A DNA stretch of 46,703 nucleotides, taken from sequence record NC_049947.1; one strand, written 5' to 3'. Position 1 is the stretch's first letter. Each line of letters starts with the position of its first letter. This DNA is from Escherichia phage 1H12. Below are positions 8,945 through 46,504 of the stretch, one piece after another. Made by a program: the position numbers and the translations under genes. The notes under the pieces are model-generated. The model saw only the letters and a list, made by a program, of their open reading frames with translations. It made no database searches and was not told the DNA's origin.

Positions 8945-8951
8945 GGACGAT

Positions 8952-9692: not shown

Positions 9693-9707
9693 TCCGGAGA
9701 GTCAGCG

Positions 9708-14143: not shown

Positions 14144-14148
14144 ATCCC

Positions 14149-15461: not shown

Positions 15462-15521
15462 TGCAAAATGTTTTATGTGAAACCGCCTCCGGGCGGTTTT
15501 GTCGTTTATGGAGCATGACGA

Positions 15522-23468: not shown

Positions 23469-24292
23469 CTTTCTTCCCTCTGCACCGCTGACGGTCGATG
23501 AGCCACAAAAGGGCGTTCATCGTCAGTAATAATGCTTTCTTCCGAGCCGTTAAGTGTGACATGGCGCAGTACGCCGCTAAAAGCCAGCTCTAGGTTCTCG
23601 GCTGTAAAAGTGGTGTCTGTCGGCCCGCTTGCCAGGACGGTGCCTTTGACCATGACCGTATAATCGCAAAATGTCGTGACGGATCCGAGATTGTGTGTTG
23701 AGACAAGCATCGTTTTGCCTTCCGCGCGTAACTCCCTCAACAGGCTGATGATTTTGGCTTCGGTTTTCACATCAACGCCAGTAAAAGGTTCATCCAGCAG
23801 GATCACATCACCCTGCTGTGCAATCGCTCTCGCCAGAAAGACGCGTTTCTTTTGTCCACCGGAAAGCTCGCCGATTTGTCGATGGCGAAAATTCACCATA
23901 TCGACACGTTCCAGCGCATCGGTGACAATTTGACGATCCCTCTTTTTGGCGATACGCAACATACCCATATGCCCATAGCGGCCCATCATCACCACATCTT
24001 CCACCAGTACAGGAAATGACCAGTCAACATCTTCTGACTGAGGGACGTAGGCAACCAGGTTTTTCTGTAACGCCTGTCGCGTGGGAATACCCAGAACAGA
24101 TATCTTTCCGCTGGTCAGACGCACAAATCCCATAATCGCTTTAAACAACGTCGATTTTCCGGAACCGTTTACCCCAACCAGAGCGGCAATAGATCCACTT
24201 GGTACTGTGAAGGATGCATCGCGCAGTGCTGTGTGCCCGTTACGCCAGGTGACAGTAACATCATTAACGACAATGCCTGCAGATTGCATCAT
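23465..24292 (-). CDS. sitB: manganese/iron ABC transporter ATP-binding protein SitB
   Basis: 275-aa ORF with Walker [10 protein letters not shown] and an ABC signature motif. Confidence 0.9.
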
Positions 24293-25206
24293 TATTTCTC
24301 CCTTTTCCCAGCTTTAATTCCCTGTACCAGCGTACTGGTAGTAACCTTAAGAAGGTCGATATACGTCGGTACCGGGCCGTTTTCTGTGCTCAGGGAATCG
24401 ACATAGAGCACACCGCCGTAGTGTGCGCCGGTTTCACGCGCAACCTGACGCGCTGGTTTATCGGAAATCGTACTCTCGCTAAAGACTGCCGGGATATGAT
24501 TTTTCTTAACTATATCAACAACCTTACGTACCTGCTGCGGTGTTCCTTGTTGATCGGCATTAATCGGCCACAGATAAAGCTCTTTTAGCCCCAAATCGCG
24601 TGCGAGATAAGAAAAAGCCCCTTCACTGGTGACCATCCATCGCTGATTCTCAGGGAGTTCCGTAATCTGCTTACGCAGGGGGGCAAGGGTTTGGGTAATC
24701 TTGGCTTTATAAGTATCGGCATTGCGTTGGTAGGTTTGTGCATTTGCCGGATCGTATTTTATCAACGCATCACGAATATTATCGACGTAAATCAGAGCAT
24801 TATCTGGCGACATCCATGCATGGGGGTTAGGTTTGCCCTCATAGGGTCCTTCGGTGATCCCTACAGGCGTCACACCCGAAGAGACAATTACTTCTGGAAC
24901 CCCATTGAGATGCTGGTAAAAGCGTTGGAACCACAATTCCAGATTCATACCATTGGCGAGAATCAGTTGTGCCCCCTGCGCACGTTTAATATCGCCAGGG
25001 GTAGGCTGATACTCATGAATTTCTGCACCAGGCTTGGTTATGGATGAGACTTCTGCAGCATCTCCCGCCACGTTTTTGGCCATATCCGCGATGATGGTAA
25101 ATGTTGTAATGACCTTGAATTTTTCAGTTGCACTTGCCTGAAATGCGATCGAGCAGGTGAGTGCGAGCCCCCCCAAGAGCATGGTTACTTTTTTTATCGA
25201 GTGCAT
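24292..25206 (-). CDS. sitA: manganese/iron ABC transporter periplasmic substrate-binding protein SitA
   Basis: 304-aa ORF with an N-terminal signal peptide; TroA/PsaA-like metal-binding protein. Confidence 0.85.
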
Positions 25207-25893: not shown

Positions 25894-26664
25894 GTGATTG
25901 ATACAATGAAAACCTTAAGTGGGAAAGAGTTTAGGAAATTATTTAATCGTTATGAGACAGGATTCTATCTAAGTGAGTTTGAATACTTAAAGGACTTTGA
26001 TCCTTTGTTTCCTGAATGCGTAGGGAAAGAATTAAAGTTGGGTTATAAACGAAAAGTTGATGTATGGTGCGAAGAGGATGCTGCGCTATATGCAGAATTT
26101 ATAGCTACAAAAGAAAGGCTGAAAAGAGGCCGGTTAATCCTAAAAATAAACCAAGTGTGGTCGCGTGTATATCCTGCTTATATTTATGCAATTGAAGAAA
26201 GAATAAATGTCAGGGCAAAGGGGAGAGAGTCATTTAAGTATGAAACTGTGCAAGAAAAACAATGTAAACTTTCCATAATGTTAGATGGTCTGAAAGACCT
26301 TGAATGTGAAATAGCTATGATTTCAAGTGAGTTTGAAATTGAAAAACACTCTATGCACTATTTTTATATGATTTTTGATATTGAACGCTATATAAATGAC
26401 TGCAGTTACTTTGTTTTTTCTGCTGCTAAAGTTGTTAAAGGCGTGATTCAATGCATTGGTTACATTGACAAAAATAACAAAGCAAGTTGCGATGAATTTT
26501 ATTCAGGCAGCTATGAATGCTTGGATGATGATCAGGAAACACTGAACTATTTAAATGAATCATGCGCAGAGGGTATAGACGCTGATAAAGATCTCATCAG
26601 GAAGAATGAGTTATTAGCCTTATCCCTGAAGGAATTGTATCAACTTCTCGTTTCAAAAAAATAA
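25894..26664 (+). CDS. hypothetical protein (AT-rich orphan cargo gene, soluble, Cys-rich)
   Basis: 256-aa ORF in a low-GC island between the sit operon and attP; GTG at 25894 or ATG at 25906; no family recognised. Confidence 0.6.
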   Translation: MIDTMKTLSGKEFRKLFNRYETGFYLSEFEYLKDFDPLFPECVGKELKLGYKRKVDVWCEEDAALYAEFIATKERLKRGRLILKINQVWSRVYPAYIYAIEERINVRAKGRESFKYETVQEKQCKLSIMLDGLKDLECEIAMISSEFEIEKHSMHYFYMIFDIERYINDCSYFVFSAAKVVKGVIQCIGYIDKNNKASCDEFYSGSYECLDDDQETLNYLNESCAEGIDADKDLIRKNELLALSLKELYQLLVSKK

Positions 26665-29196: not shown

Positions 29197-29415
29197 TCAC
29201 AATCCCCATTGTTTGTTCTTAAGTTCGATCTCCTCCTGGCAACTTGCACAAGTCCGACAACCCTGAACGACCAGGCGTCTTCGCTCATCTATCGGATCGC
29301 CACACTCACAACAATGAGTGGCAGATACAGTCTGGTAGTTCAGACGACGCATTTTTATTGCTGTATTGCGCTGTAATTCTTCGATTTCTGATGCTGAATC
29401 AATGATGTCTGCCAT
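29197..29415 (-). CDS. DksA/TraR-family C4 zinc-finger protein
   Basis: 72-aa ORF with CxxC...CxxC (CCECGDPIDERRRLVVQGCRTCASC). Confidence 0.75.
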   Translation of the reverse strand: MADIIDSASEIEELQRNTAIKMRRLNYQTVSATHCCECGDPIDERRRLVVQGCRTCASCQEEIELKNKQWGL

Positions 29416-29513
29416 CTTCCATTAATCCCTGAATTGTTGGTTAATACGCTTGAGGGTGAATGCGAATAATAAAAAAGGAGCCTGTAGCTCCCTGATGATT
29501 TTGCTTTTCATGT

Positions 29514-29813
29514 TCATCGCTCCTTAAAGACGCCGTTTAACATGCCGATCGCCAGGCTTAAATGAGTCGGTGTGAATCCCATCAGCGTTACCGTTTCGCG
29601 GTGCTTCTTCAGTACGCTACGGCAAATGTCATCGACGTTTTTATCCGGAAACTGCTGTCTGGCTTTTTTGATTTCAGAGTTAGCTTGACGGGCAATGCTG
29701 CGAAGGGCGTTTTTCTGCTGAGGTGTCACTGAACAAGCCCCATGCCGGAAAGCATAAGCACACAGAATATGAAGCCCGCCGCCAGAAAAATGCATTCTGT
29801 TGTTGTCATGCAA
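29514..29813 (-). CDS. hypothetical protein (lambda early-left small ORF-like; start uncertain)
   Basis: 99-aa ORF in the position of the small lambda ORFs between xis and exo. Confidence 0.5.
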   Translation of the reverse strand: MHDNNRMHFSGGGLHILCAYAFRHGACSVTPQQKNALRSIARQANSEIKKARQQFPDKNVDDICRSVLKKHRETVTLMGFTPTHLSLAIGMLNGVFKER

Positions 29814-29997
29814 GCTCTCTCTCGTTTGCCTCTGCTTTCGCCGCCATCATTTCCAGCTTTTGTGAAAGGGATGCGGCTAACGTATGAAATTCTTCGTCTG
29901 TTTCTGCTGGTATTGGCACAAACCTGACTCCAATTTGAGCAAGGCTATGTGCCATCTCAATGCTCGTTCTTAACTCAACAGGAGATGCTTTGTGCAT
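29806..29997 (-). CDS. hypothetical protein (lambda orf63-like)
   Basis: 63-aa ORF, same size and position as lambda orf63. Confidence 0.55.
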   Translation of the reverse strand: MHKASPVELRTSIEMAHSLAQIGVRFVPIPAETDEEFHTLAASLSQKLEMMAAKAEANERELA

Positions 29998-30158
29998 ACA
30001 GCCCCTCGTTTATTATTTATCTCCTCAGCCAGCCGCTGGGCTTTCAGTGGATTTTGGATAACAGAAAGGCCGGGAAATACCCAGCCTCGCTTTGTAACGG
30101 AGTAGACGAAAGTGATCGCGCCTACCCGGATATTATCGTGAGGATGCGTCATCGCCAT
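29970..30158 (-). CDS. hypothetical protein (lambda orf60a-like)
   Basis: 62-aa ORF immediately before exo in transcription order. Confidence 0.5.
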
Positions 30159-30829
30159 TGCTCCCCAAATACAAAACCAATTTCAGCCAGTGCCTCGTCC
30201 ATTTTTTCGATGAACTCCGGCACCATCTCGTCAAAACTCGCCATGTACTTTTCATCCCGCTCAACCACGACATAATGCAGTCCTTCACGCTTCATACGCG
30301 GGTCATAGTTGGCAAAGTACCAGGCATCTTTTCGTGTCACCCACATGCTGTACTGCACCTGGGCCATGTAAGCCGACTTTATGGCCTCGAAACCACCGAG
30401 CCGGAACTTCATGAAATCCCGGGAGGTAAACGGGCATTTCAGCTCAAGGCCATTGCCGTCACTGCATAAACCATCGGGAGAGCAGGCGGTGCGCATACTT
30501 TCGTCGCGATAGATGATCGGGGATTCAGTAACATTCACGCCGGAAGTGAATTCAAACAGAGTTCTGGCGTCGTTCTCGTACTGTTTTCCCCAGGCCAGCG
30601 CCTTAGCATTAACTTCCGGAGCCACACCGGTGCAAACCTCAGCCAGCAGGGTGTGGAAGTAGGACATTTTCATGTCAGGCCACTTCTTTCCTGAGCGGGG
30701 CTTTGCTATCACGTTGTGAACTTGTGAAGCGGTGATGACGCCGAGCCGTAATTTGTGCCACGCATCATCTCCCTGCTCGATAGCTCTCACGTCGATCCCG
30801 GTACGCTGCAGGATAATGTCCGGTGTCAT
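30149..30829 (-). CDS. exo: lambda exonuclease (Red-alpha)
   Basis: 226-aa [38 protein letters not shown], near-identical to lambda Exo. Confidence 0.95.
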
Positions 30830-31611
30830 GCTGCCACCTTCTGTTCAGTGGCTTTTTGTTTCAGGAATCCAAGAGCTTTCACTGCTTCGTCCTGTGTCAG
30901 TTCTGACGATGCACGAATGTCGCGGCGAAATATCTGGGAACAGAGCGGCAATAAGTCGTCATCCCATGTTTTATCCAGGGCGATCAGCAGAGTGTTAATC
31001 TCCTGCATGGTTTCATCGTTAACCGGAGTGATGTCGCGTTCCGGCTGACGTTCTGCAGTGTATGCGGTATTTTCGACAATGCGCTCGGCTTCATCCTTGT
31101 CATAGATACCAGCAAATCCGAAGGCGAGACGGGCACACTGAATCATGGCTTTATGCCGTAACATCCGTTTGGGATGCGACTGCCACGGCCCCGTGATTTC
31201 TCTGCCTTCGCGAGTTTTGAATGGTTCGCGGCGGCATTCATCCATCCATTCGGTAACGCAGATCGGATGATTACGGTCCTTGCGGTAAATCCGGCATGTA
31301 CAGGATTCATTGTCCTGCTCAAAGTCCATGCCATCAAACTGCTGGTTTTCATTGATGATGCGGGACCAGCCATCAACGCCCACCACCGGAACGATGCCGT
31401 TCTGCTTATCAGGGAAGGCGTAAATTTCTTTCGTCCACGGATTAAGGCCGTACTGGTTGGCGACGATCAACAATGCGATGAACTGCGCATCGCTGGCATC
31501 ACCTTTAAATGCCGTCTGGCGAAGAGTGGTGATCAGTTCCTGTGGGTCGACAGAATCCATGCCGACACGTTCAGCCAGCTTCCCTGCCAGCGTTGCGAGT
31601 GCTGTACTCAT
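30826..31611 (-). CDS. bet: recombination protein Bet (Red-beta)
   Basis: 261-aa [40 protein letters not shown] matching lambda Bet. Confidence 0.95.
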
Positions 31612-31616
31612 CCGTT

Positions 31617-32033
31617 TTATACCTCTGAATCAATATCAACCTGGTGGTGAGCAATGGTTTCAACCATGTACCGGATGTGTTCTGCCATGCGCTCCTGAAA
31701 CTCAACATCGTCATCAAACGCACGGGTAATGGCTTTTTTGCTGGCCCCGTGGCGTTGCAAATGATCGATGCATAGCGATTCAAACAGGTGCTGGGGCAGG
31801 CCTTTTTCCATGTCGTCTGCCAGTTCTGCCTCTTTCTCTTCACGGGCGATCTGCTGGTAGTGACGCGCCCAGCTCTGAGCCTCAAGACGATCCTGAATGT
31901 AATAAGCGTTCATGGCTGAACTCCTGAAATAGCTGTGAAAATATCGCCCGCGAAATGCCGGGCTGATTAGGAAAACAGGAAAGGGGGTTAGTGAATGCTT
32001 TTGCTTGATCTCAGTTTCAGTATTAATATCCAT
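31617..32033 (-). CDS. gam: host-nuclease (RecBCD) inhibitor Gam
   Basis: 138-aa ORF matching the long form of lambda Gam. Confidence 0.9.
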
Positions 32034-32131
32034 TTTTTATAAGCGTCGACGGCCTCACGAAACATCTTTTCATCGCCAATAAAAGTGGCGATAGTGAATT
32101 TAGTCTGGATAGCCATAAGTGTTTGATCCAT
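31988..32131 (-). CDS. kil: host cell-division inhibitor Kil
   Basis: Internal ATG gives a 47-aa product [47 protein letters not shown], as lambda Kil. Confidence 0.8.
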
Positions 32132-32264
32132 TTTTTGGGACTCCTGGCTGATTAAGTATGTCGATAAGGCGTTTCCATCCGTCACGTAATTTACGGGTGA
32201 TTCGTTCAAGTAAAGATTCGGAAGGGCAGCCAGCAACAGGCCACCCTGCAATGGCATATTGCAT
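32100..32264 (-). CDS. cIII: CIII, FtsH (HflB) protease inhibitor that stabilises CII
   Basis: Reverse-strand translation gives [54 protein letters not shown] (54 aa, below the ORF-track cutoff), matching lambda CIII. Confidence 0.8.
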   Translation of the reverse strand: MQYAIAGWPVAGCPSESLLERITRKLRDGWKRLIDILNQPGVPKNGSNTYGYPD

Positions 32265-32336
32265 GGTGTGCTCCTTATTTATACATAACGAAAAACGCCT
32301 CGAGTGAAGCGTTATTGGTATGCGGTAACGCCGCGC

Positions 32337-32705
32337 TCAGGCGGCTTTGATAGTCATATCATCTGAATCAAATATTCCTGATGTATCGATATCGGTAATT
32401 CTTATTCCTTCGCTACCATCCATTGGAGGCCATCCTTCCTGACCATTTCCATCATTCCAGTCGAACTCACACACAACACCATATGCATTTAAGTCGCTTG
32501 AAATTGCTATAAGCAGAGCATGTTGCGCCAGCATGATTAATACAGCATTTAATACAGAGCCGTGTTTATTGAGTCGGTATTCAGAGTCTGACCAGAAATT
32601 ATTAATCTGGTGAAGTTTTTCCTCTGTCATTACGTCATGGTCGATTTCAATTTCTATTGATGCTTTCCAGTCGTAATCAATGATGTATTTTTTGATGTTT
32701 GACAT
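32337..32705 (-). CDS. ea10: Ea10-like protein
   Basis: 122-aa ORF MSNIKKYIIDYDWKASIEIEIDHDVMTEEK matching lambda Ea10. Confidence 0.85.
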   Translation of the reverse strand: MSNIKKYIIDYDWKASIEIEIDHDVMTEEKLHQINNFWSDSEYRLNKHGSVLNAVLIMLAQHALLIAISSDLNAYGVVCEFDWNDGNGQEGWPPMDGSEGIRITDIDTSGIFDSDDMTIKAA

Positions 32706-32722
32706 CTATTCATATCCTCACA

Positions 32723-32752
32723 GATAAAAAATCGCCCTCACATTGGAGGGCA
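32723..32752 (-). terminator. putative rho-independent terminator in the leftward early transcript (tL-like)
   Basis: Hairpin gccctc-acattg-gagggc with a U-run on the reverse strand. Confidence 0.55.
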
Positions 32753-32965
32753 AAGAAGATTTCCAATAATCAGAACAAGTCGGCTCCTGTTTAGTTACGA
32801 GCGACATTGCTCAGTGTATTCACTCGTTGGAATGAATACACAGTGCAGTGTTTATTAGTATGCCTGTCTTTTAACCACATCAGGCTCGGTGGTTCTCGTG
32901 TACCCCTACAGCGAGAAATCGGATAAACTCTATTCACCCCTACAGAGAGCAAAAGAGAAACGCCG

Positions 32966-34314: not shown

Positions 34315-35214
34315 TTATTTGATTATTTCTTTTATAAAGACTTCTTTCGGTTGGTATTTTTTATCTGATGATTTGAGCTGGTACGTTATTGTTATATCAG
34401 CACGTACAGAAAATTTACCTGCAAAATCTGATGGGTTTACGTTGGGGCCAAGAACCATATTTACTCTTCGATCTATTAATCCAGGGATAACAGCAGCCCA
34501 ACCTTTCTCTGGATTGTCGAGGTCTAATGCACGGATTTCAACATCAACATCAAAATGATCCTGAGTATATGACTCTGGTGTGAAGACAACTTCAGTTGGG
34601 GCTTTTTTAATGGTTTCAGCGGGAATGGTCACTGTACCACCCCCTGTACCTATGACCATCGTAGATCCTTCGTCTGCCCTAGCTGGGGCAAGCGTCTTAA
34701 TGGAACTTTTGGCAAGAGTCTTCTTATTGGTTACCGTGCTTTCTATGATTGCTTGAAGACGGTCAGGTGAAATATTAGCCTCACCGGCACCAATATTGAT
34801 GATTGTATTGTTATTTGCTTCAAAGTGGGAGGTGTTGCTTGGAGCCATAGCCTTAGTTGCTAGAACTAAGCCATATCCAACCAGACCAATAACAACAGCA
34901 CCAACGAGAGCGTTTCTCATTTTCCCATTTCCGATCTTTGCATGAGCGCCAGCAAGAAACTTGTCCATTTCTTCTTGGCTACCAAAGAGGAGTTTAATAA
35001 CAATATCTTCATAAAGGCTTCCTGCTTCTAATCGCGCAACATGCACCGATATATCAAGGATATTAGCCCCTGTCAGTTCCTGCAAAACACCTTCTGATTG
35101 TTTTGCGATGGCCTCCCACCCTTGAAGGGAGGTAATCACATCTTTGATGCTTACAGGTTCTTTAGTTGAATAATATATGTTTTCGGTAAAGGTTAAAGAT
35201 AATTCTTGGGACAT
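34315..35214 (-). CDS. hypothetical single-pass membrane protein at the rexAB-equivalent position (candidate phage exclusion / abortive-infection protein)
   Basis: 299-aa ORF with RBS gaggg 5 nt upstream; one hydrophobic segment (~residues 100-122, NALVGAVVIGLVGYGLVLATKAM); AT-rich; lies between cI and the pL/nutL/N region. Confidence 0.65.
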   Translation of the reverse strand: MSQELSLTFTENIYYSTKEPVSIKDVITSLQGWEAIAKQSEGVLQELTGANILDISVHVARLEAGSLYEDIVIKLLFGSQEEMDKFLAGAHAKIGNGKMRNALVGAVVIGLVGYGLVLATKAMAPSNTSHFEANNNTIINIGAGEANISPDRLQAIIESTVTNKKTLAKSSIKTLAPARADEGSTMVIGTGGGTVTIPAETIKKAPTEVVFTPESYTQDHFDVDVEIRALDLDNPEKGWAAVIPGLIDRRVNMVLGPNVNPSDFAGKFSVRADITITYQLKSSDKKYQPKEVFIKEIIK

Positions 35215-36463: not shown

Positions 36464-36763
36464 ATGGAACAAACAAATTACAGCAAACTATCACAGCGCG
36501 ACGTTGATCGCGCAGAAACAGATTTACTTATCAACCTGTCAACGCTTACTCAGCGCGGTCTGGCAAAGATGATTGGCTGTCATGAATCGAAGATAAGCAG
36601 AACAGACTGGAGGTTTATAGCTTCGGTCTTGTGTGCTTTTGGCATGGCATCAGACATCAGTCCGATTAGCAGAGCTTTTAAGTATGCGCTTGATGAAATC
36701 ACCAATAAAAAACGCCCGGTGTGCAAGACCGAGCGTTCTGAACAAATCCAGATGGAGTTCTGA
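36464..36763 (+). CDS. cII: transcriptional activator CII
   Basis: 99-aa ORF; C-terminus TNKKRPVCKTERSEQIQMEF matches lambda CII. Confidence 0.85.
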   Translation: MEQTNYSKLSQRDVDRAETDLLINLSTLTQRGLAKMIGCHESKISRTDWRFIASVLCAFGMASDISPISRAFKYALDEITNKKRPVCKTERSEQIQMEF

Positions 36764-36785
36764 GGTCATTACTGGATCTATCAAC
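36707..36785 (-). ncRNA. oop: OOP antisense RNA (antisense to the 3' end of cII)
   Basis: Reverse strand reads gttgatagatccagtaatgacctcagaactccatctggatttgttcagaacgctcgg...caccgggcgttttttatt, matching lambda OOP including its terminator. Confidence 0.6.
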
Positions 36786-36795
36786 AGGAGTCATT

Positions 36796-37695
36796 ATGAC
36801 AAATACAGCAAAAATACTCAACTTCGGCAGAGGTAACTTTGCCGGACAGGAGCGTAATGTGGCAGATCTCGATGATGGTTACGCCAGACTATCAAATATG
36901 CTGCTTGAGGCTTATTCGGGCGCAGATCTGACCAAGCGACAGTTTAAAGTGCTGCTTGCCATTCTGCGTAAAACCTATGGGTGGAATAAACCAATGGACA
37001 GAATCACCGATTCTCAACTTAGCGAGATTACAAAGTTACCTGTCAAACGGTGCAATGAAGCCAAGTTAGAACTCGTCAGAATGAATATTATCAAGCAGCA
37101 AGGCGGCATGTTTGGACCAAACAAAAACATCTCAGAATGGTGCATCCCTCAAAACGAGGGAAAATCCCCTAAAACGAGGGATAAAACATCCCTCAAATTG
37201 GGGGATTGCTATCCCTCAAAACAGGGGGACACAAAAGACACTATTACAAAAGAAAAAAGAAAAGATTATTCGTCCGAGAATTCTGGCGAATCCTCTGACC
37301 AGCCAGAAAACGATCTTTCTGTGGTTAAACCGGATGCTGCAATTCAGAGCGGCAGTAAGTGGGGAACAGCAGAAGACCTGACCGCCGCAGAGTGGATGTT
37401 TGACATGGTGAAGACCATCGCGCCATCAGCCAGAAAACCGAATTTTGCTGGGTGGGCTAACGATATCCGCCTGATGCGTGAACGTGACGGACGTAACCAC
37501 CGCGATATGTGTGTGCTTTTCCGCTGGGCCTGCCAGGACAACTTCTGGTCCGGTAACGTGCTGAGTCCGGCCAAACTCCGCGACAAGTGGACCCAGCTCG
37601 AAATCAACCGTAACAAGCAACAGGCTGGCGTGACAGCCGGAAAACCAAAACTCGACCTGACAAACACTGACTGGATTTACGGGGTGGATCTATGA
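36796..37695 (+). CDS. O: replication initiator O
   Basis: 299-aa ORF MTNTAKILNFGRGNFAGQERNVADLDDGYARLSNMLLEAY matching lambda gpO. Confidence 0.95.
   Translation: MTNTAKILNFGRGNFAGQERNVADLDDGYARLSNMLLEAYSGADLTKRQFKVLLAILRKTYGWNKPMDRITDSQLSEITKLPVKRCNEAKLELVRMNIIKQQGGMFGPNKNISEWCIPQNEGKSPKTRDKTSLKLGDCYPSKQGDTKDTITKEKRKDYSSENSGESSDQPENDLSVVKPDAAIQSGSKWGTAEDLTAAEWMFDMVKTIAPSARKPNFAGWANDIRLMRERDGRNHRDMCVLFRWACQDNFWSGNVLSPAKLRDKWTQLEINRNKQQAGVTAGKPKLDLTNTDWIYGVDL
37144..37275 (+). repeat. ori: replication origin inside O: four iterons plus adjacent A/T-rich segment
   Basis: Four ~18-bp repeats of the type atccctcaaaacgaggga followed by A-rich sequence. Confidence 0.8.
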
Positions 37696-38393
37696 AAAAC
37701 ATCGCCGCACAGATGGTTAACTTTGACCGTGAGCAGATGCGTCGGATCGCCAACAACATGCCGGAACAGTACGACGAAAAGCCACAGGTACAGCAGGTAG
37801 CGCAGATCATCAACGGTGTGTTCAGCCAGTTACTGGCAACTTTCCCGGCGAGCCTGGCTAACCGTGACCAGAACGAACTGAACGAAATCCGCCGCCAGTG
37901 GGTTCTGGCTTTCCGGGAAAACGGGATCACCACAATGGAACAGGTTAACGCAGGAATGCGCGTAGCCCGTCGGCAGAATCGACCATTTCTGCCATCACCC
38001 GGGCAGTTTGTTGCATGGTGCCGGGAAGAAGCATCCGTTATCGCCGGACTGCCAAACGTCAGCGAGCTGGTTGATATGGTTTACGAGTATTGCCGGAAGC
38101 GAGGCCTGTATCCGGATGCGGAGTCTTATCCGTGGAAATCAAATGCGCACTACTGGCTGGTTACCAACCTGTATCAGAACATGCGGGCCAATGCGCTTAC
38201 TGATGCGGAATTACGCCGTAAGGCCGCAGATGAGCTTGTCCATATGACTGCGAGAATTAACCGTGGTGAGGCGATCCCTGAACCAGTAAAACAACTTCCT
38301 GTCATGGGCGGTAGACCTCTAAATCGTGCACAGGCTCTGGCGAAGATCGCAGAAATCAAAGCTAAGTTCGGACTGAAAGGAGCAAGTGTATGA
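37692..38393 (+). CDS. P: replication protein P (DnaB helicase loader)
   Basis: 233-aa ORF matching lambda gpP. Confidence 0.95.
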   Translation: MKNIAAQMVNFDREQMRRIANNMPEQYDEKPQVQQVAQIINGVFSQLLATFPASLANRDQNELNEIRRQWVLAFRENGITTMEQVNAGMRVARRQNRPFLPSPGQFVAWCREEASVIAGLPNVSELVDMVYEYCRKRGLYPDAESYPWKSNAHYWLVTNLYQNMRANALTDAELRRKAADELVHMTARINRGEAIPEPVKQLPVMGGRPLNRAQALAKIAEIKAKFGLKGASV

Positions 38394-38680
38394 CGGGCAA
38401 AGAGGCAATTATTCATTACCTGGGGACGCATAATAGCTTCTGTGCGCCGGACGTTGCCGCGCTAACAGGCGCAACAGTAACCAGCATAAATCAGGCCGCG
38501 GCTAAAATGGCACGGGCAGGTCTTCTGGTTATCGAAGGTAAGGTCTGGCGAACGGTGTATTACCGGTTTGCTACCAGGGAAGAACGGGAAGGAAAGATGA
38601 GCACGAACCTGATTTTTAAGGAGTGTCGCCAGAGTGCCGCGATGAAACGGGTATTGGCGGTATATGGAGTTAAAAGATGA
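38390..38680 (+). CDS. ren: Ren protein
   Basis: 96-aa ORF matching lambda Ren. Confidence 0.85.
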   Translation: MTGKEAIIHYLGTHNSFCAPDVAALTGATVTSINQAAAKMARAGLLVIEGKVWRTVYYRFATREEREGKMSTNLIFKECRQSAAMKRVLAVYGVKR

Positions 38681-38753
38681 CCATCTACATTACTGAGCTA
38701 ATAACAGGCCTGCTGGTAATCGCAGGCCTTTTTATTTGGGGGAGAGGGAAGTC

Positions 38754-39194
38754 ATGAAAAAACTAACCTTTGAAATTCGATCTCCAGCACATCAGCAAAA
38801 CGCTATTCACGCAGTACAGCAAATCCTTCCAGACCCAACCAAACCAATCGTAGTAACCATTCAGGAACGCAACCGCAGCTTAGACCAAAACAGGAAGCTA
38901 TGGGCCTGCTTAGGTGACGTCTCTCGTCAGGTTGAATGGCATGGTCGCTGGCTGGATGCAGAAAGCTGGAAGTGTGTGTTTACCGCAGCATTAAAGCAGC
39001 AGGATGTTGTTCCTAACCTTGCCGGGAATGGCTTTGTGGTAATAGGCCAGTCAACCAGCAGGATGCGTGTAGGCGAATTTGCGGAGCTATTAGAGCTTAT
39101 ACAGGCATTCGGTACAGAGCGTGGCGTTAAGTGGTCAGACGAAGCGAGACTGGCTCTGGAGTGGAAAGCGAGATGGGGAGATCGGGCTGCATGA
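38754..39194 (+). CDS. ninB: recombination protein NinB
   Basis: ATG at 38754 after RBS gagggaag; MKKLTFEIRSPAHQQNAIHAVQQILPDP matches lambda NinB. Confidence 0.85.
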   Translation: MKKLTFEIRSPAHQQNAIHAVQQILPDPTKPIVVTIQERNRSLDQNRKLWACLGDVSRQVEWHGRWLDAESWKCVFTAALKQQDVVPNLAGNGFVVIGQSTSRMRVGEFAELLELIQAFGTERGVKWSDEARLALEWKARWGDRAA

Positions 39195-39718
39195 CTATCA
39201 AATCAAATACGCCAGCACACGACAAGGACTGCTGGCAAACGCCGCTTTGGCTTTTTGATGCACTGGATATTGAGTTTGGATTCTGGCTGGATTCGGCAGC
39301 GAGCGACAAAAATGCTCTGTGTGCTCACTGGCTAACTGAGGCCGACGACGCGCTCAATTCTGAGTGGGTAAGCCACGGTGCAATCTGGAATAACCCACCG
39401 TACAGCAATATCAGGCCGTGGGTGGAAAAAGCCGCTGAGCAGTGCATACAACAGCGACAGACGGTAGTTATGCTTGTGCCAGAGGATATGTCAGTCGGAT
39501 GGTTCAGCAAGGCTCTGGAGAGTGTCGACGAAGTTCGCATTATCACTGATGGACGGATTAATTTTATCGAACCATCGACAGGGCTGGAGAAGAAGGGAAA
39601 CAGCAAAGGCTCCATGCTGCTGATTTGGCGACCGTTCATCAGTCCTCGACGGATGTTTACTACCGTATCCAAAGCGGCATTGATGGCGATCGGGCAGGGC
39701 GTCAGGAGGGCGGCATGA
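39191..39718 (+). CDS. phage Dam-like DNA N6-adenine methyltransferase
   Basis: 175-aa ORF with the NPPY catalytic motif; start overlaps the ninB stop. Confidence 0.7.
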
Positions 39719-39891
39719 GGCGACAGCGACGAAGTTTCACCGACATCATCTGCGAAAACTGCAAATACCTTCCAACGAAACGCTCCAGAAATAAACGCAA
39801 GCCAATCCCAAAAGAATCTGACGTAAAAACCTTCAATTACACAGCTCACCTGTGGGATATCCGGTGGCTAAGATATCGTGCGAGGAAATGA
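39715..39891 (+). CDS. ninE: NinE protein
   Basis: 58-aa product [30 protein letters not shown]; lambda NinE-like. Confidence 0.7.
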
Positions 39892-40235
39892 CAATGGATT
39901 ATTCACAGTTAAGTGATTTTGAAATTAACAGAATGGTAGGAGACATAATTTTTAAAGGCCTTTGGGCAAGTAAACCGGAAACATCAGGGAATAACACCAA
40001 CAAATGGTATTACGGAAATGCTGATACAACTTTTGAGCCATTAAATCATTTGCCTGACTACTGCAATGATCCGAGCGCTTCATGGCCGATTATTGAGAAA
40101 TACAGGATTTCTATCTTAGACCAGTTAACTGAATGGTGTGTGGATGCAAAAGGCGTAAGCCCAATATTTGATACCAGACCTCTCCGCGCCGCCATTATTG
40201 TCTTTCTCCTGATGCAGGAGGCCAATAATGCTTAG
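39888..40235 (+). CDS. hypothetical nin-region protein
   Basis: ATG at 39888 after RBS gaggaa, overlapping the ninE stop. Confidence 0.55.
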
Positions 40236-40422
40236 CCCATCTCAATCCCTTCAATACCTGAAAGGAAGCATAGAGCGGGCTTCAATGTGCACAGAGTGGA
40301 TTCTATCTAGGTTTAGCGCATACAGAAGATTGCCGGTAAAGGGCATGCCAAGCAAGTCGATGCTGCATATGCAAAAGAATGCGCGCGGGAAGGTATGGCG
40401 AGAACGCAGGTTATCTGGCTGA
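40228..40422 (+). CDS. ninF: NinF-like protein (diverged C-terminus)
   Basis: 64-aa ORF starting [10 protein letters not shown] like lambda NinF. Confidence 0.5.
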
Positions 40423-40441
40423 AAGAGGGGGTAATTAAGGC

Positions 40442-40804
40442 GTGAATACTTACCACATCACACTACCCTGGCCTCCGAGCAATAATCGCTATTATCGCCA
40501 TAATCGCGGGCGCACGCACGTCAGCGCAGAGGGGCAGGCATACCGCGATAACGTCGCCCGAATCATTAAAAACGCAATGCTGGATATCGGCCTGGCGATG
40601 CCTGTGAAAATCCGCATTGAGTGCCACATGCCGGATCGCCGTCGCCGTGACCTGGATAATCTGCAAAAAGCCGCTTTTGACGCACTCACCAAAGCAGGTT
40701 TCTGGCTGGATGATGCTCAGGTCGTTGATTACCGCGTTGTGAAGATGCCTGTTACCAAAGGTGGGAGGCTGGAATTGACCATCACCGAAATGGGGAATGA
40801 ATGA
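40442..40804 (+). CDS. rusA: Holliday junction resolvase RusA
   Basis: 120-aa [31 protein letters not shown] matching DLP12 RusA. Confidence 0.9.
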
Positions 40805-40941
40805 TGTTTGAGTTTTATATGGCAGAACGTCTTCGCCACCGCTGGGTGCGTCTGCGCTTATATCGTTTCCCCGGTTCTGTTTTGACCGATTACCGAATAC
40901 TGAAGAATTACGCCAAAACACTGACAGGAGCAGGAGTATGA
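40801..40941 (+). CDS. ylcG: small protein YlcG-like
   Basis: 46-aa [28 protein letters not shown] directly after rusA, as in DLP12; below the ORF-track size cutoff. Confidence 0.55.
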
Positions 40942-41026
40942 AGTCAGAGATAACAATCAACTAATACTGTTTTGCTGATTTTTGCTTGTAATTGGCGTTC
41001 TGGTCTGATTTTTGTGGAGTAAGTTG

Positions 41027-41404
41027 ATGCGTGATATTCAGATGGTTCTTGAGCGTTGGGGAGCGTGGGCGGCTAATAATCATGAAGATGTGACCTGGTC
41101 GTCCATTGCCGCCGGTTTTAAGGGATTAATTCCTTCAAAAGTAAAATCTCGCCCGCAATGTTGTGACGATGACGCGATGATCATTTGCGGGTGCATGGCC
41201 CGTCTGAAAAATAACAACAGCGATTTGCATGATTTGTTAGTGGACTATTATGTCGGCGGCATGACTTTTATGGCGCTTGCGCGTAAGCATGGTAGATCTG
41301 ATTGTTGGATTGGCAGGATGCTCCAAAAAGCTGAGGGCGTAGTGGAGGGCATGCTGATGGTGTTGGATCTCAGATTGGAGATGGATGCTGATTGTTTGAG
41401 ATAA
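41027..41404 (+). CDS. Q: late-gene antiterminator Q (DLP12 QuuD / phage 82 type)
   Basis: ATG at 41027 after RBS ggagtaag; [33 protein letters not shown]. Confidence 0.8.
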
Positions 41405-41495
41405 TTAAAGGAAAAGTTGCTGTCTGGTTATCATTAGACTAATGTTTCAAATGTTAGAATCGCAACGTAGTTATGATCATATAACAGCTTGTTCC

Positions 41496-41526
41496 CTGAT
41501 TTAGCCAGCCTCCCCAAAGGCTGGTT
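41496..41526 (+). terminator. putative tR'-like rho-independent terminator after the pR'/qut region
   Basis: Hairpin ccagcc-tccccaaa-ggctgg followed by tttttttt. Confidence 0.6.
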
Positions 41527-41560
41527 TTTTTTCTAATAAGTATCAATCCGGTTAGGTATT

Positions 41561-42085
41561 TTATTGTTTGACCCATAATAGTTCATTGACATTGAATCCC
41601 AATTTTTGAGCAGTACGCACATAGTCTGCTTTTACATTATCTGGAATAGTTGGAGTCCGTGCCAGAATCCATAGGTATTCTCTGTTCGGACCACTGACAA
41701 GAGCATATTTATACTCATCATCCAGTTTGATTACATTATAGCCACCATAGAAGGGGCCAAAAAACGAAACCTTCAACGCTGCAGTTGTATTATCTCCTGT
41801 AAAGTATGCTTTACCTTCGCTCTCGCTCCATTTGTTTTTCGTTGGGTCATATCCACGATTAAGTACACTAATCCCTCCGTCGTTCCGTTTCCCATAAGTG
41901 GCGCTGACCTGTTCCAGACCACGTTCAAATCGGTTCTCAAGCCGAGCTATTTCATACCATTTTCCGAGGTAGCGGTTGGTGTCAAAATTTGTAATCGGCT
42001 GCACACCTTTAGGTGGTGTCGGGGCCTTACATGCTATCAGAGTGAAAGAGAGTGCAATGCCAGTCAACACAGGCCATAACTTCAT
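41561..42085 (-). CDS. blc: outer-membrane lipoprotein, bacterial lipocalin Blc family
   Basis: 174-aa ORF with lipoprotein signal and lipobox LIAC; YLGKWYEIARLENRFERG and SFFGPFYGGYNVI match lipocalin motifs. Confidence 0.75.
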   Translation of the reverse strand: MKLWPVLTGIALSFTLIACKAPTPPKGVQPITNFDTNRYLGKWYEIARLENRFERGLEQVSATYGKRNDGGISVLNRGYDPTKNKWSESEGKAYFTGDNTTAALKVSFFGPFYGGYNVIKLDDEYKYALVSGPNREYLWILARTPTIPDNVKADYVRTAQKLGFNVNELLWVKQ

Positions 42086-42277
42086 AATATATCCTGTACT
42101 TTTGATAGTTGAGAGTAAGTATTAAAGATAGATGATTACTACCGATCACTTAAAGAACTTTCCTACTATATTAGGAATAGTCCATAACAAAAAAATTGTC
42201 AGTGATGACGGCAGAAAGGCAGTTTAGGTCGTGTACTACACTGTTAACCTGTTAATGAATTAGTCAAGGGGTAGGCA

Positions 42278-43237
42278 ATGATAAAAAAACCTGTCGTTGG
42301 GATCAGTGGTTGTTTGGCCGGTTCTTCTGTCCGTTTTGATGGTGGTCACAAAAGAGCTAGCTTTTTAATGGACAAATTACTGGAATGGGTAACATTCAAA
42401 CCAGTATGTCCGGAAATGGCTATAGGGCTTCCAGTTCCGCGTCCTGCTCTACGTCTTGTTCGCTCGGCGCAAGGAAATATACGGATGTGTTTCAGCCACG
42501 ACCAGAATGAGGATGTTACAGAGAAAATGACAGAGTTTAGTCGTTCTTATCTTGACAAATTAAAGGATGTATCGGGATTTGTGGTTTGTGCAAAATCTCC
42601 TAGCTGTGGTATGGAACGCGTGCGTGTATATGATGAAAATGGTAATCGTGGTCGTAAAGATGGAGTGGGACTATTTACGAGCACGTTGATGGAAAGGTTT
42701 TCCTGGCTACCGGTTGAAGAGGATGGGCGACTACATGATCCAGTGCTTCGTGAAAACTTTGTTGAAAGAGTATTTGCTTTACATGAGCTCAATCATCTTT
42801 ATAAAGCGAAATTATCAAGAAGGGAATTATTAGCTTTTCATAGCCGTTATAAGCTTCAGTTGTTGGCGCATAGCCAGGCCGGTTATAAAGAGATGGGGCC
42901 ATTTGTGGCTGCAATACATGAGTGGGCAGACCTTGAATCATACTTTGAGGTGTATCGTGAGAAGCTGATGGCGATTCTCAGAAAACCTGCATCACGTAAA
43001 AATCACACGAATGTGCTGATGCATATACAGGGATATTTTAGTAACTGCTTAAATACACGTCAGCGTAAAGAGTTGAGCGATGTTATACTTAACTATCGAG
43101 CTGGCACGCTACCTCTTCTTGCGCCATTAACTTTGCTGAAGCATTACTTGGCAGAGTATCCTGATGATTATTTGCTTATACAGAATTACTTCCACCCCTA
43201 TCCTGATGAACTGGCTCTAAGACTCTTGGTGAACTAG
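42278..43237 (+). CDS. DUF523 (TudS-like) / DUF1722 (YbgA-like) two-domain protein
   Basis: 319-aa ORF; N-terminal GISGCLAG...VCPE Cys pattern typical of DUF523, C-terminal half YbgA-like. Confidence 0.6.
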   Translation: MIKKPVVGISGCLAGSSVRFDGGHKRASFLMDKLLEWVTFKPVCPEMAIGLPVPRPALRLVRSAQGNIRMCFSHDQNEDVTEKMTEFSRSYLDKLKDVSGFVVCAKSPSCGMERVRVYDENGNRGRKDGVGLFTSTLMERFSWLPVEEDGRLHDPVLRENFVERVFALHELNHLYKAKLSRRELLAFHSRYKLQLLAHSQAGYKEMGPFVAAIHEWADLESYFEVYREKLMAILRKPASRKNHTNVLMHIQGYFSNCLNTRQRKELSDVILNYRAGTLPLLAPLTLLKHYLAEYPDDYLLIQNYFHPYPDELALRLLVN

Positions 43238-43546
43238 GCGTTTGGAATGCACCAACAAGATGATTTTCTCCTTAGAGAATGTTTACAATCGTAAAAACTT
43301 CACTATGATATCTATAGTTGTACAGTTTGTAAAAAAATTCGGTTCATGCTTAAGGTAATGTTAATATGTTAATTAATGATTAATAATCAAGCAAGCCAAA
43401 AATAGTTCTGTTTAATCTAGTATTACATAAATATTTTAAAGAAAATATCAAAGTTCATGATGATATAATGAGGTTTTTCTCATTGAAAATATGGCAATTT
43501 TAATATTTCCACCTATACTTACTTAACTCAAATCTAATTATGTCAG

Positions 43547-44287
43547 GTGGATGGTATGCCATGCATATGTTCTATCATTTTGGTTTTGAACTCGTTTGAT
43601 ATCCGGCTTGGTAAAGAAAAAATCTCTCTAAAAAAAGGAAGTGTTGTTGCTATAGAATACAATTTAAAAGTTTTCTTTTCTTCAAATAAAGATAATATAA
43701 TGATCGTGGATATTGAAGAGAAAACAGTTAATGACTTCTTTAAAAACAATACACTCTCACCTTTTTCTGTAAGAAGATTTTATTCAGCATACTTGATAGT
43801 AAACTGTACAGACTATTCATTGTTAAAGAACTTGATAGGTTGCTTGAATTGTGATGGTGAAACTACGGCTGTAGTTAAAAATTCAATATTATTTGCATGT
43901 CTTGCTATTTTATCCTCGGAAAAAATGTTTCAGAGTTTTTTGTTTGGGTGTCTTAATAGTTTAGGAAGCAAAGTTAAGGCTATTATTCACTCGGACATAT
44001 CTGCAGCATGGAGACTTTGTGATATTTCTTCAAGACTATGTCTGAGTGAAAGTTTGTTAAAAAGAAAACTAAAACACGAAGGCTTATCATTTAGCAAATT
44101 AATTCTTGAAGAACGAATGGTGATGGCTGAAAGGTTATTAAGCTACAATTTCTATCCTGTTGGGAAAGTTGCTAAAATATGTGGTTATGAAAGCGCGTCA
44201 TATTTTATAAGTGTTTTCAGAAGATATTTTGGTGTTCCCCCCCATGAATATTCATCAAGATTTTTTTTAGAAAAAGGCAAGATGTAA
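43547..44287 (+). CDS. AraC-family transcriptional regulator (AppY-like)
   Basis: 246-aa ORF in a very AT-rich island with a C-terminal AraC-type HTH (KVAKICGYESASYFISVFRRYFGVPPHEY). Confidence 0.75.
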   Translation: MDGMPCICSIILVLNSFDIRLGKEKISLKKGSVVAIEYNLKVFFSSNKDNIMIVDIEEKTVNDFFKNNTLSPFSVRRFYSAYLIVNCTDYSLLKNLIGCLNCDGETTAVVKNSILFACLAILSSEKMFQSFLFGCLNSLGSKVKAIIHSDISAAWRLCDISSRLCLSESLLKRKLKHEGLSFSKLILEERMVMAERLLSYNFYPVGKVAKICGYESASYFISVFRRYFGVPPHEYSSRFFLEKGKM

Positions 44288-44349
44288 CGTGATGCGTTTT
44301 GATGATTTTGTAATTTTCATATTTGATGATTATATGATGCTTTCAGCTA

Positions 44350-44378
44350 CGCCAGAATAATCGCTGGCGTTTTTCTTT
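44350..44378 (+). terminator. putative rho-independent terminator after the AraC-family gene
   Basis: Hairpin cgccag-aataat-cgctggcg followed by ttttt. Confidence 0.5.
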
Positions 44379-44454
44379 TCTAATGTAACTTCTGTATCTT
44401 TCCCTCTTTCATTCCAAACCGTGTACACCATCCGTTATTCGCGGAGGTGAGGCT

Positions 44455-44670
44455 ATGAAATCCATGGACAAGTTAACAACGGGCATTGCCTACGGCACCT
44501 CTGCAGGCAGTGCTGGCTACTGGTTTTTACAGTGGCTTGATCAGGTCAGTCCGTCACAGTGGGCGGCGATTGGAGTGCTTGGAAGCCTTGTGTTGGGTTT
44601 TCTCACTTATCTGACAAACCTTTATTTCAAGATTAAAGAAGATAAGCGTAAGGCTGCGAGAGGTGAATAA
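44455..44670 (+). CDS. S: pinholin S (phage 21 S21 type, dual-start Met1/Met4)
   Basis: 71-aa [43 protein letters not shown], near-identical to phage 21 S21. Confidence 0.9.
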
Positions 44671-45167
44671 TGTCGCCATCATTACGCAAGGCTGTAGCAG
44701 CTGCTATTGGTGGTGGGGCTGTTGCCATAGCGTCTGTGCTCATCACTGGTCCGAGTGGTGACGATGGTCTGGAAGGTGTCAGCTACATACCATATAAAGA
44801 TATTGTTGGTGTATGGACTGTATGTCACGGGCATACAGGAAAAGACATCATGCTCGGTAAAACGTATACCAAAGCAGAATGCAAAGCACTCTTGAATAAA
44901 GACCTTGCCACTGTCGCCAGACAAATTAACCCGTACATCAAAGTCGATATACCGGAAACAACGCGCGGCGCTCTTTACTCATTCGTTTACAACGTGGGTG
45001 CTGGCAATTTCAGAACATCGACGCTTCTTCGCAAAATAAACCAGGGCGATATCAAAGGCGCATGTGATCAGTTACGTCGCTGGACATATGCTGGCGGTAA
45101 GCAATGGAAAGGTCTCATGACTCGTCGTGAGATTGAGCGTGAAATCTGTTTGTGGGGTCAGCAATGA
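44670..45167 (+). CDS. R: SAR endolysin (signal-anchor-release lysozyme, phage 21 R21 type)
   Basis: 165-aa ORF with an N-terminal Gly/Ala-rich SAR segment followed by a T4-lysozyme-like domain. Confidence 0.9.
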
Positions 45168-45625
45168 ACAGAGTAACCGCGATTATCTCCGCTCTGGTTA
45201 TCTGCATCATCGTCTGCCTGTCATGGGCTGTTAATCATTACCGTGATAACGCCATTACCTACAAAGCCCAGCGCGACAAAAATGCCAGAGAACTGAAGCT
45301 GGCGAACGCGGCAATTACTGACATGCAGATGCGTCAGCGTGATGTTGCTGCGCTCGATGCAAAATACACGAAGGAGTTAGCTGATGCGAAAGCTGAAAAT
45401 GATGCTCTGCGTGATGATGTTGCCGCTGGTCGTCGTCGGTTGCACATCAAAGCAGTCTGTCAGTCAGTGCGTGAAGCCACCACCGCCTCCGGCGTGGATA
45501 ATGCAGCCTCCCCCCGACTGGCAGACACCGCTGAACGGGATTATTTCACCCTCAGAGAGAGGCTGATCACGATGCAAAAACAACTGGAAGGAACCCAGAA
45601 GTATATTAATGAGCAGTGCAGATAG
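45164..45625 (+). CDS. Rz: i-spanin Rz
   Basis: ATG at 45164; [30 protein letters not shown] matches lambda Rz. Confidence 0.9.
45384..45566 (+). CDS. Rz1: o-spanin Rz1 (embedded in the +1 frame of Rz)
   Basis: 60-aa lipoprotein with lipobox and proline-rich region (VVVGCTSKQ...PPPPPAW), as lambda Rz1. Confidence 0.85.
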
Positions 45626-45656
45626 AGCTGCCCATATCGATGGGCAACTCATGCAA

Positions 45657-45950
45657 TTATTGTGAGCAATAGACACGCGCTTCCAGCGGAGTATAAATGC
45701 CTAAAGTAATAAAACCGAGCAATCCATTTACGAATGTTTGCTGGGTTTCTGTTTTAACAACATTTTCTGCGCCGCCACAAATTTTGGCTGCATCAACAGT
45801 TTTCTCCTGTCCAATTCCCGAAACGAAGAAGTGATGGGTGATGGTTTCCTTTGGTGTTACTGCTGTCGGTTTGTTTCCAACAGTAAACGTCTGTTGAGCA
45901 CATCCTGTAATAAGCATTGCCAGAGCGGCAGAAAACAACATTTTTTTCAT
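45657..45950 (-). CDS. bor: Bor lipoprotein (serum-resistance-associated outer-membrane lipoprotein)
   Basis: Internal ATG gives a 97-aa product MKKMLFSAALAMLITGCAQQTFTV matching lambda Bor. Confidence 0.85.
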   Translation of the reverse strand: MKKMLFSAALAMLITGCAQQTFTVGNKPTAVTPKETITHHFFVSGIGQEKTVDAAKICGGAENVVKTETQQTFVNGLLGFITLGIYTPLEARVYCSQ

Positions 45951-46309
45951 CTTATTATCCTGCATTGTTAAAAACGGCAGAATCCTATGTGACAACAATT
46001 AAACGATAGTTAAATGGATTGATGAAAATTAAAACTATATAGGTGGATGCTCAGCCTATTGGAGGAGGGGGGCACTCAGAATCCTGTGGAATGAAATAAA
46101 CCGCTCTTTCTGTCCATTACCCTTTTAGCTGCGCTGTATCGTCGCCGTATTCCCGCATTAACCATGACCGTAGCCCGACGGGGAATTCCTTCTGCGTGAG
46201 TGTGCGGGAATAATCAAAAACGATGCACACCGGGTTTTACTGTGCTGACAGACGCAGGGTTACCCTCATAGTCGCTTTTCCGGTGCGATGGTGGAAGAAA
46301 CCGGGATGT

Positions 46310-46504
46310 TTATTCATCATCACTTTGGATTGATGTACATGCTCTCTTTTCTGACGTTAGTCTCCGACGGCAGGCTTCAATGACCCAGGCTGAGAAATTC
46401 CCAGACCCTTTTTGCTCAAGAGCGATGTTAATTTGTTCAATCATTTGGTTAGGAAAGCGGATGTTGCGGGTTGTTGTTCTGCGGGTTCTGTTCTTAGTTG
46501 ACAT
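46310..46504 (-). CDS. hypothetical small basic protein (possible ribbon-helix-helix DNA-binding protein) near the right end
   Basis: 64-aa ORF with an Arg/Thr-rich N-terminus; lambda right-end ORF-like. Confidence 0.5.
   Translation of the reverse strand: MSTKNRTRRTTTRNIRFPNQMIEQINIALEQKGSGNFSAWVIEACRRRLTSEKRACTSIQSDDE

Follow-up and report, generated by a model that had tools for sequence, protein, structure and literature searches.

The lysis cassette of Escherichia phage 1H12 is most probably a functional cassette of the phage 21 type, predicted to consist of a pinholin, a signal-anchor-release (SAR) endolysin and a two-component spanin, and is carried by a mosaic lambdoid phage (our probability for this reading, about 0.95). 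No sequence feature was found that speaks against it. The DNA studied, here called the window, was the whole of NC_049947.1 (46,703 nt), and the cassette occupies 44455-45625. The window is a cos-to-cos genome, both ends of which are lambda-like cos ends, and is 99.98% identical to the deposited phage Lambda_2E9 (LR595860). Its first letters are GGGGCGGCGACCTCG, with a G that the left end of lambda lacks, and its length exceeds that of LR595860 by one base; the record's way of writing the cohesive end probably accounts for this difference.

The ORF listing and the sequence place four genes on the plus strand: S (44455-44670, 71 aa), R (44670-45167, 165 aa), Rz (45164-45625, 153 aa) and Rz1 (45384-45566, 60 aa), the last lying within Rz in its +1 frame. 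Each of the four reading frames is intact. The S-R overlap is a single base (TAATG) and the R-Rz overlap four bases (ATGA), as would be expected of a co-translated cassette. The bor gene (45657-45950, minus strand) adjoins the cassette on its right and is not a lysis gene. The other ORFs on either strand of 44455-45625 were short and overlapped S, R, Rz or Rz1, and we saw no support for any of them. PHROGs assignments agreed with Pfam for the cassette proteins, and the Pfam and PDB matches were so far above threshold that they represent homologies and not chance.

A preliminary description of this DNA had recognised a phage 21-type lysis cassette at this position, with a 71-aa S21-like holin that has a Met1-Lys-Ser-Met4 dual start and an endolysin that has an N-terminal SAR segment. 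It had proposed an alignment with phage 21 S21 and R21 as a check, and had named the lack of a SAR segment and an alignment to lambda R as findings that would tell against it. Our alignment with phage 21 (OL657228) showed that 67/71 residues of S (94.4%) and 161/165 residues of R (97.6%) are identical; a Gly/Ala-rich segment is present at residues 8-27 of R, and R does not align to lambda R. The description of S and R was thus borne out, with the pinholin action of S and the release of R predicted from likeness to phage 21.

S belongs to the family PF04971 ('Bacteriophage P21 holin S'; E = 3e-35, 120 bits against a cut-off of 26). The four substitutions relative to phage 21 S (I7L, S8T, R61K and R64K) are conservative, and the two genes are only 88.4% identical at the DNA level. 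The protein has the layout of a class II holin, that is, about 70 residues with a weak first transmembrane domain (TMD1), a normal Gly/Ser-faced TMD2 and a charged C-terminal tail of 13 residues. TMD1 (residues 8-28) is weakly hydrophobic, with a mean hydropathy of 0.34 and Gly, Ala, Ser or Thr at 12/21 positions, and TMD2 (residues 36-58) is a normal membrane helix with a mean hydropathy of 1.5 that contains G40xxxS44xxxG48. From the 94% identity, S would form nanometre-scale holes that depolarise the membrane and retain soluble endolysin; holes of this scale, without release of soluble endolysin, are known for S21 68 (PMC9636201; PMC9239132).

The S protein starts with MKSMDK, Met1 being at 44455 and Met4 at 44464, and the positive charge of Lys2 is, as read from the sequence, present in the longer product only. 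Initiation of S at Met1 is predicted to yield the antiholin (71 aa) and initiation at Met4 the pinholin (68 aa). A pair of Met codons, two or three codons apart, was found in 46/46 distinct S21-family N-termini from IMG/VR; the family members had been retrieved with a mid-gene pattern, so that this test of the dual start was not circular. Among the IMG/VR loci L005-L168, many S21-family holins have uncharged or acidic extensions (MYQM, MNQM or MDQM) and not MKSM, indicating that the extra positive charge to which the antiholin role of the longer form is ascribed is not universal. A subgroup of the family in the same loci has a small ORF (MTQDYELVVKG...) between holin and endolysin. The S21-family cassettes of 933W and Stx phages share the holin family and the conserved double Met start with the window but have this small ORF between S and the endolysin, often together with the uncharged MYQM, whereas S of the window abuts R.

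R is assigned to PF00959 (Phage_lysozyme; E = 1.3e-45) and matches the PDB entries 3hde, 3hdf and 4zpu (RrrD; E = 5e-110) at E values of about 1e-110 over residues 1-165. Entries 3hde and 3hdf are listed just as 'Lysozyme'; we take them to be R21, given the near-identity to phage 21 R. The former is full length, and the latter is without the N-terminal SAR segment. The substitutions relative to R21 (P2S, I18V, N31D and M98T) are conservative, and P2S and I18V are the sole differences within the N-terminal segment. Together with the four changes in S, the four in R could shift the timing of lysis.

A SAR domain has been described as a weakly hydrophobic segment of about 20 residues, about half of which are Ala, Gly or Thr, and the lysozyme triad as E-X8-D-X5-T (PMC9239132). 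In the composition of its segment and in its triad, R agrees with this definition of a SAR endolysin (PMC9239132): residues 8-27 hold Gly, Ala, Ser or Thr at 13/20 positions, lack Cys and are preceded by R6 and K7, and the triad E35-X8-D44-X5-T50 is present as a 16-residue motif that begins at residue 35. R is accordingly classified, on its sequence, as a putative SAR endolysin of the R21 type, with the T4/GH24 lysozyme fold. In the same study, 'the definitive test' of a SAR endolysin is that it is exported, is tethered and is then released by depolarisation or a pinholin (PMC9239132); for R, the 97.6% identity suggests Sec-dependent export, tethering and release by depolarisation or by the pinholin.

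The SAR segment and the lysozyme fold would also suit an endolysin of the P1 Lyz type, in which a disulfide cages the catalytic Cys and a thiol of the SAR domain brings about activation, and R indeed had weak PDB matches to 1xjt and 1xju (E = 6e-8 and 1e-7). Both are listed just as 'Lysozyme', and we take them to be P1 Lyz. The Cys residues of R are at positions 52, 71, 132 and 160 only, and this absence of Cys from residues 1-51 separates R from the P1 Lyz type. Disulfide regulation of that kind was rejected because the SAR segment holds no Cys; given the 97.6% identity to R21 as well, we consider it extremely improbable. R21 itself is reportedly regulated through refolding of the SAR segment and not through disulfide exchange, as Sun et al. 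are said to have described in 2009.

Parts of the genome around S and R resemble lambda, and a lambda-type cassette would have a canonical holin that makes large holes, paired with a soluble transglycosylase in the cytoplasm. The 92-99% identity of Rz, Rz1 and bor to their lambda counterparts and the alignment of 57% of the genome with lambda would fit such a cassette. However, S and R showed no similarity to lambda S and lambda R in BLASTP (E = 22 and E = 1.9, respectively) and no DNA match either, lambda DNA homology is absent from 39889-45163, S falls within the P21 holin family, and R has an N-terminal hydrophobic segment. On the phage 21 identities and the BLASTP comparison with lambda S and R, lambda-type lysis genes were rejected, and we regard their presence here as vanishingly improbable. 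The S-R-Rz-Rz1-bor genes of lambda have the same right-end position before cos and likewise comprise a dual-start holin, an endolysin and embedded spanins. They differ in that the lambda holin is of class I, with 107/105 aa, three TMDs and large holes, whereas S of the window is of class II, and in that lambda R, a soluble transglycosylase of the cytoplasm, has no SAR segment (lambda mechanism, PMC9636201).

The remaining products of the phage 21-type cassette are close to both phages. Rz is identical to phage 21 at 150/153 residues (98.0%) and to lambda at 152/153 (99.3%), Rz1 at 60/60 (100%) and 59/60 (98.3%), and Bor at 96/97 (99.0%) and 89/97 (91.8%), respectively. Rz (PF03245, E = 2.6e-54) has an N-terminal TMD with a mean hydropathy of 2.4-2.6 and Cys residues at positions 99 and 152. 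Rz1 (PF06085, E = 2.9e-20) has the lipobox VVGC with Cys20, a further Cys at position 29, and 10 Pro within the 41-residue stretch from Cys20. The arrangement is that of an embedded two-component spanin: an N-terminal TMD in Rz, Rz1 wholly inside Rz, and a frame offset of 1. Rz is therefore annotated as the predicted inner-membrane (i-) spanin subunit and Rz1 as the predicted outer-membrane lipoprotein (o-) spanin subunit. Bor (PF06291, E = 6.4e-31; lipobox ITGC) is an outer-membrane lipoprotein.

Our genome-wide nucleotide comparison showed that 56.9% of the window aligns with lambda (NC_001416), mostly at 95-99% identity. The aligning blocks are the head and tail genes (2-18018, 95-97%), the recombination genes exo-bet-gam (29220-32856), the end of cII with O, P, ren and ninB (36699-39194), ninE, where the homology ends at 39888, the stretch from the Rz start codon through bor (45164-46004), and the cos end (the final 411 bases of the window). 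The tail fibre genes, the b region, int, the immunity region, the right nin region, Q, S and R gave no lambda DNA alignment. The preliminary description had spoken of a lambda backbone; that wording covers about 57% of the genome, namely the head, tail, recombination and replication genes, and the database entry for the near-identical phage places it in Jouyvirus, alongside phage 21. On these alignments, 1H12 is best described as a putative mosaic lambdoid phage, with lambda-like head, tail, recombination and replication genes.

The same description had treated the lysis module as a swap, with Rz/Rz1 and bor remaining lambda-like. That S and R are unrelated to their lambda counterparts stands, but the non-lambda block is far larger than these two genes. 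Lambda homology ends at ninE (39888) and restarts precisely at the first codon of Rz (45164), which gives a foreign block of 5.3 kb (39889-45163). Besides S and R, this block holds other nin genes, a Q of the short DLP12 type, its own late promoter region and 2.9 kb of cargo. Rz, Rz1 and bor do have 92-99% identity to lambda, but those of phage 21 are lambda-like as well, and of the 32 informative sites across Rz-bor, 19 match phage 21, 7 match lambda and 6 match neither phage. Because Rz, Rz1 and bor are common to lambda and phage 21, likeness to lambda does not imply a junction with lambda ancestry at this point. Phage 21 is collinear with the window over 44424-46238 at 95.6% DNA identity, from S through bor and beyond, and this collinearity continues for about 230 bases past bor, where lambda is only 67-82% identical. 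The Rz-bor stretch is slightly closer to phage 21 than to lambda and travels here with the phage 21-type block.

These data also bear on whether S and R alone were exchanged into a lambda ancestor, with junctions flanking both genes. The restart of lambda homology at the first codon of Rz is what such an event would leave on the right, but on the left lambda homology stops 4.6 kb upstream of S, and Q, the promoter region and the cargo are non-lambda too. The phage 21 homology that runs past bor and the 19 to 7 division of sites likewise argue against it, and among the phage matches no relative was found in which lambda Q and lambda upstream sequence directly abut S21. We consider an exchange of S and R alone very unlikely.

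Several further regions of the window were noted. The right nin region (39191-39718, plus strand, and 39852-41404) differs from that of lambda in that a Dam-type adenine methylase replaces ninC and ninD; NinX, rusA, ylcG and the short Q follow, as in DLP12-type prophages. Downstream of the tail fibre genes, the b region carries a four-gene sitABCD-like Mn/Fe ABC transporter operon (21757-25206, minus strand), so annotated in the near-identical record, with SitA matching the ZnuA family (E = 9e-86). It also carries a 256-aa ORF (25894-26664, plus strand) that has no Pfam match and whose sole match is phrog_20520, a family without an assigned function. A 299-aa ORF (34315-35214, minus strand) has the repressor on one side and the N-like gene on the other, where lambda has rexAB. 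It had no Pfam or PADLOC match, its sole match being phrog_4506, likewise without an assigned function, and it is a candidate for an exclusion gene expressed in the lysogen. Adjoining the right cos end, a 64-aa ORF (MSTKNRTRRTTTRNIRFPNQMIEQ...; 46310-46504, minus strand) matches phrog_949, another family without an assigned function; it is intact in lambda (NC_001416, 48109-48303; 60/64 identical), the reference record of which annotates no gene there. An Rfam scan of the whole window gave a sole match, the lambda cIII thermoregulator (32219-32277, minus strand; 88.5 bits), and nothing near the cassette.

In a megablast search of the phage collection with 44300-46000, nine deposited genomes were 100% identical (Lambda_2E9, Lambda_4B5, Lambda_2G7a and six Lambda_ev isolates), and phage 21 itself (OL657228) came next at 95.8%. 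Phage 434 and many other sequenced lambdoid phages in this collection carry the same cassette. The S-R pair was found at at least 80% coverage in 3743/5426 complete E. coli genomes, usually annotated as essD and rrrD, and the whole Q-cargo-S-R block in 890/5426.

The chromosomal copies raise the question of whether the cassette, like essD-rrrD in the defective prophage DLP12, might have decayed or become cryptic and no longer drive lysis. Thousands of E. coli chromosomes carry these genes under the names essD, rrrD and rzpD, and many of the copies presumably belong to prophages that are defective too. The window, by contrast, has four intact reading frames with coupled overlaps in a complete cos-to-cos genome, the identical cassette recurs in nine deposited phage genomes, and the near-identical record annotates no other holin or endolysin gene. 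A cryptic remnant is therefore exceedingly improbable in our view. The prophage cassette essD-rrrD-rzpD/rzoD-borD of the DLP12 type, with rusA-ylcG-quuD upstream, has the same order as the window (rusA-ylcG-Q-cargo-S-R-Rz-bor), R matches the RrrD structure 4zpu, and RefSeq names the matching genes essD, rrrD and rzpD. Typical essD-rrrD copies differ in being about 90-93% identical in DNA to S-R of the window, the cargo is a different one, and DLP12 is defective whereas the window is a complete phage genome. The cargo in K-12 DLP12 is nmpC.

The late-gene antiterminator Q (41027-41404, plus strand) has 125 aa and was identified by PF06530 (E = 2.2e-51) and phrog_79 ('anti-termination protein Q-like'). 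It is of the short DLP12/QuuD-like type, not lambda Q, and is just distantly related to phage 21 Q: the PDB chains of Q21 match it over residues 8-90 only (E = 2e-8), and the Q region has no DNA homology to lambda or phage 21. Q presumably activates transcription of the lysis genes. Downstream of Q, we read from the sequence a candidate late promoter with an extended -10 element, TGtTAGAAT (41452-41460, plus strand). A scan for two-hexamer promoters gave nothing convincing after Q or directly upstream of S, the counts being no higher than in shuffled sequences, so that the proposed late promoter is a reading of the sequence only. The phage 21 Q-binding repeats ATTGAGCA/AATGAGCA are absent here, and no late control elements of lambda or phage 21 precede the cassette. 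About 100 nt after Q, a terminator-like hairpin followed by a T run (41503-41536, plus strand) is a candidate tR'; it has a 9-bp stem with 5 GC pairs and a T8 tail, and none of 200 shuffled sequences folded as well (z = -3.6).

Between this hairpin and S lie 2.9 kb of cargo (41561-44287), which, judged from position, appears to be inside the late transcription unit and outside the lysis machinery. Pfam and NCBIfam matches identified a blc lipocalin (41561-42085, minus strand), a YbgA-like protein of 319 aa with 2-thiouracil desulfurase and DUF1722 domains (42278-43237, plus strand) and a YdeO/GadX-like AraC regulator of 243 aa (43556-44287, plus strand), over the gene of which the GC content drops to 26-33%. 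This regulator could be a relative of other AraC-type regulators carried by prophages, for example PatE or PsrA/B. A PADLOC scan of the cargo and two unassigned ORFs gave no credible match, and a tRNA scan of the window gave none. The cargo occupies the slot between the late terminator and S in which Stx phages carry stx. Homology to phage 21 begins at 44424, 31 nt before S, and homology to several other phages begins just about 11 nt before S, which indicates that the cargo slot ends right at the ribosome-binding region of S.

A second terminator-like hairpin with a T run marks the end of the cargo (44349-44380, plus strand), 75 nt upstream of S. It has a 7-bp stem with 5 GC pairs, followed by TTTTTCTTTT, and again 0/200 shuffled sequences folded as well (z = -3.2). 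This candidate terminator would keep transcription of the cargo in the lysogen out of the holin gene. A more speculative proposal is that Q-dependent late transcription boosts the cargo on induction, with the terminator at 44349-44380 shielding the holin in the lysogen, and that the AraC regulator rewires acid-stress or virulence regulation of the host in the approximately 16% of E. coli genomes with this block; we consider this proposal rather unlikely.

The ribosome-binding site of S may itself be structured. An RNA hairpin is predicted at 44426-44449 (plus strand), the 3' arm of which contains the Shine-Dalgarno sequence GGAGG of S (44443-44447); the fold of 44424-44475 has a predicted energy of -15.4 kcal/mol (z = -2.3). 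Such a hairpin was predicted for the window, phage 21 and 13 further upstream variants (for 14/14 upstream variants), with one compensatory change from A-U to G-C, and the MAFFT alignment was structurally too inconsistent for a formal count of pairs. Shuffling of the upstream bases left the Shine-Dalgarno sequence largely paired (mean 0.6-0.8), and the observed pairing was reached by between 3 and 112 of 200 shuffled sequences. Since base composition alone gives much of the pairing, we rate the hairpin as suggestive, not demonstrated, and translational control of the S dual start by this predicted structure is possible. An effect of RNA structure on start choice in S21 was reportedly described by Barenboim et al. 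in 1999.

Phage 21 provides the closest known counterpart. Its S21-R21-Rz21-Rz1-bor genes (OL657228) have the same order, lengths and overlaps as those of the window, the encoded proteins are 94-100% identical, and the MKSM dual start, the SAR segment and the catalytic triad are shared. The two differ upstream: in phage 21 there are its own Q, the Q-binding repeats and, at the position of the cargo, two tRNA genes, and in the window the short DLP12-type Q and the 2.9 kb of cargo. The lambda-phage 21 hybrids hy21, which are routine in the study of S21 and R21, likewise combine a lambda body with the phage 21 lysis genes (PMC12642591); unlike the window, a natural mosaic with another Q and extra cargo, they are laboratory-made and carry Q21.

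What we obtained directly here is sequence identity, domain features and gene order, and the steps of the mechanism come from the phage 21 literature. In phage 21, the pinholin S21 68 accumulates in the inner membrane, and S21 71, with its extra N-terminal positive charge, is the antiholin; SAR endolysins are exported by Sec, tethered in an inactive state, and released and refolded on depolarisation, with a slow spontaneous leak; and the spanins deal with the outer membrane after the endolysin has acted (PMC9636201, PMC12642591). Late in infection of 1H12, RNA polymerase modified by Q would start at the late promoter downstream of Q, pass tR', the 2.9 kb of cargo and the second terminator, and so reach S-R-Rz/Rz1. 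S would be translated from two starts, the 68-aa product being the pinholin and the 71-aa product, with its extra N-terminal Lys, the antiholin that delays triggering. R would be exported by the host Sec system and held inactive at the inner membrane by the N-terminal SAR segment, which is weakly hydrophobic. When the programmed time comes, the pinholin would form many nanometre-scale channels and the membrane would depolarise, whereupon the SAR segment would leave the bilayer and refold into the body of the enzyme, the E35/D44/T50 site would become active, and the cell wall would be degraded. The Rz-Rz1 complex would then disrupt the outer membrane. Given protein identities of 94-100% with conservative substitutions only, we consider it very likely that these steps apply to 1H12.

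The cassette itself is already known in every respect and holds nothing new, and its significance beyond correct annotation is little. Its products should be named pinholin/antipinholin S, SAR endolysin R, i-spanin Rz and o-spanin Rz1, and not 'lambda S/R'. With lambda homology resuming exactly at a start codon, 1H12 offers another case of module exchange at gene boundaries in lambdoid phages. Lysis by 1H12 should be triggered by depolarisation and, because SAR endolysins release spontaneously, should be somewhat leaky, a property that would be relevant only to work on these isolates.
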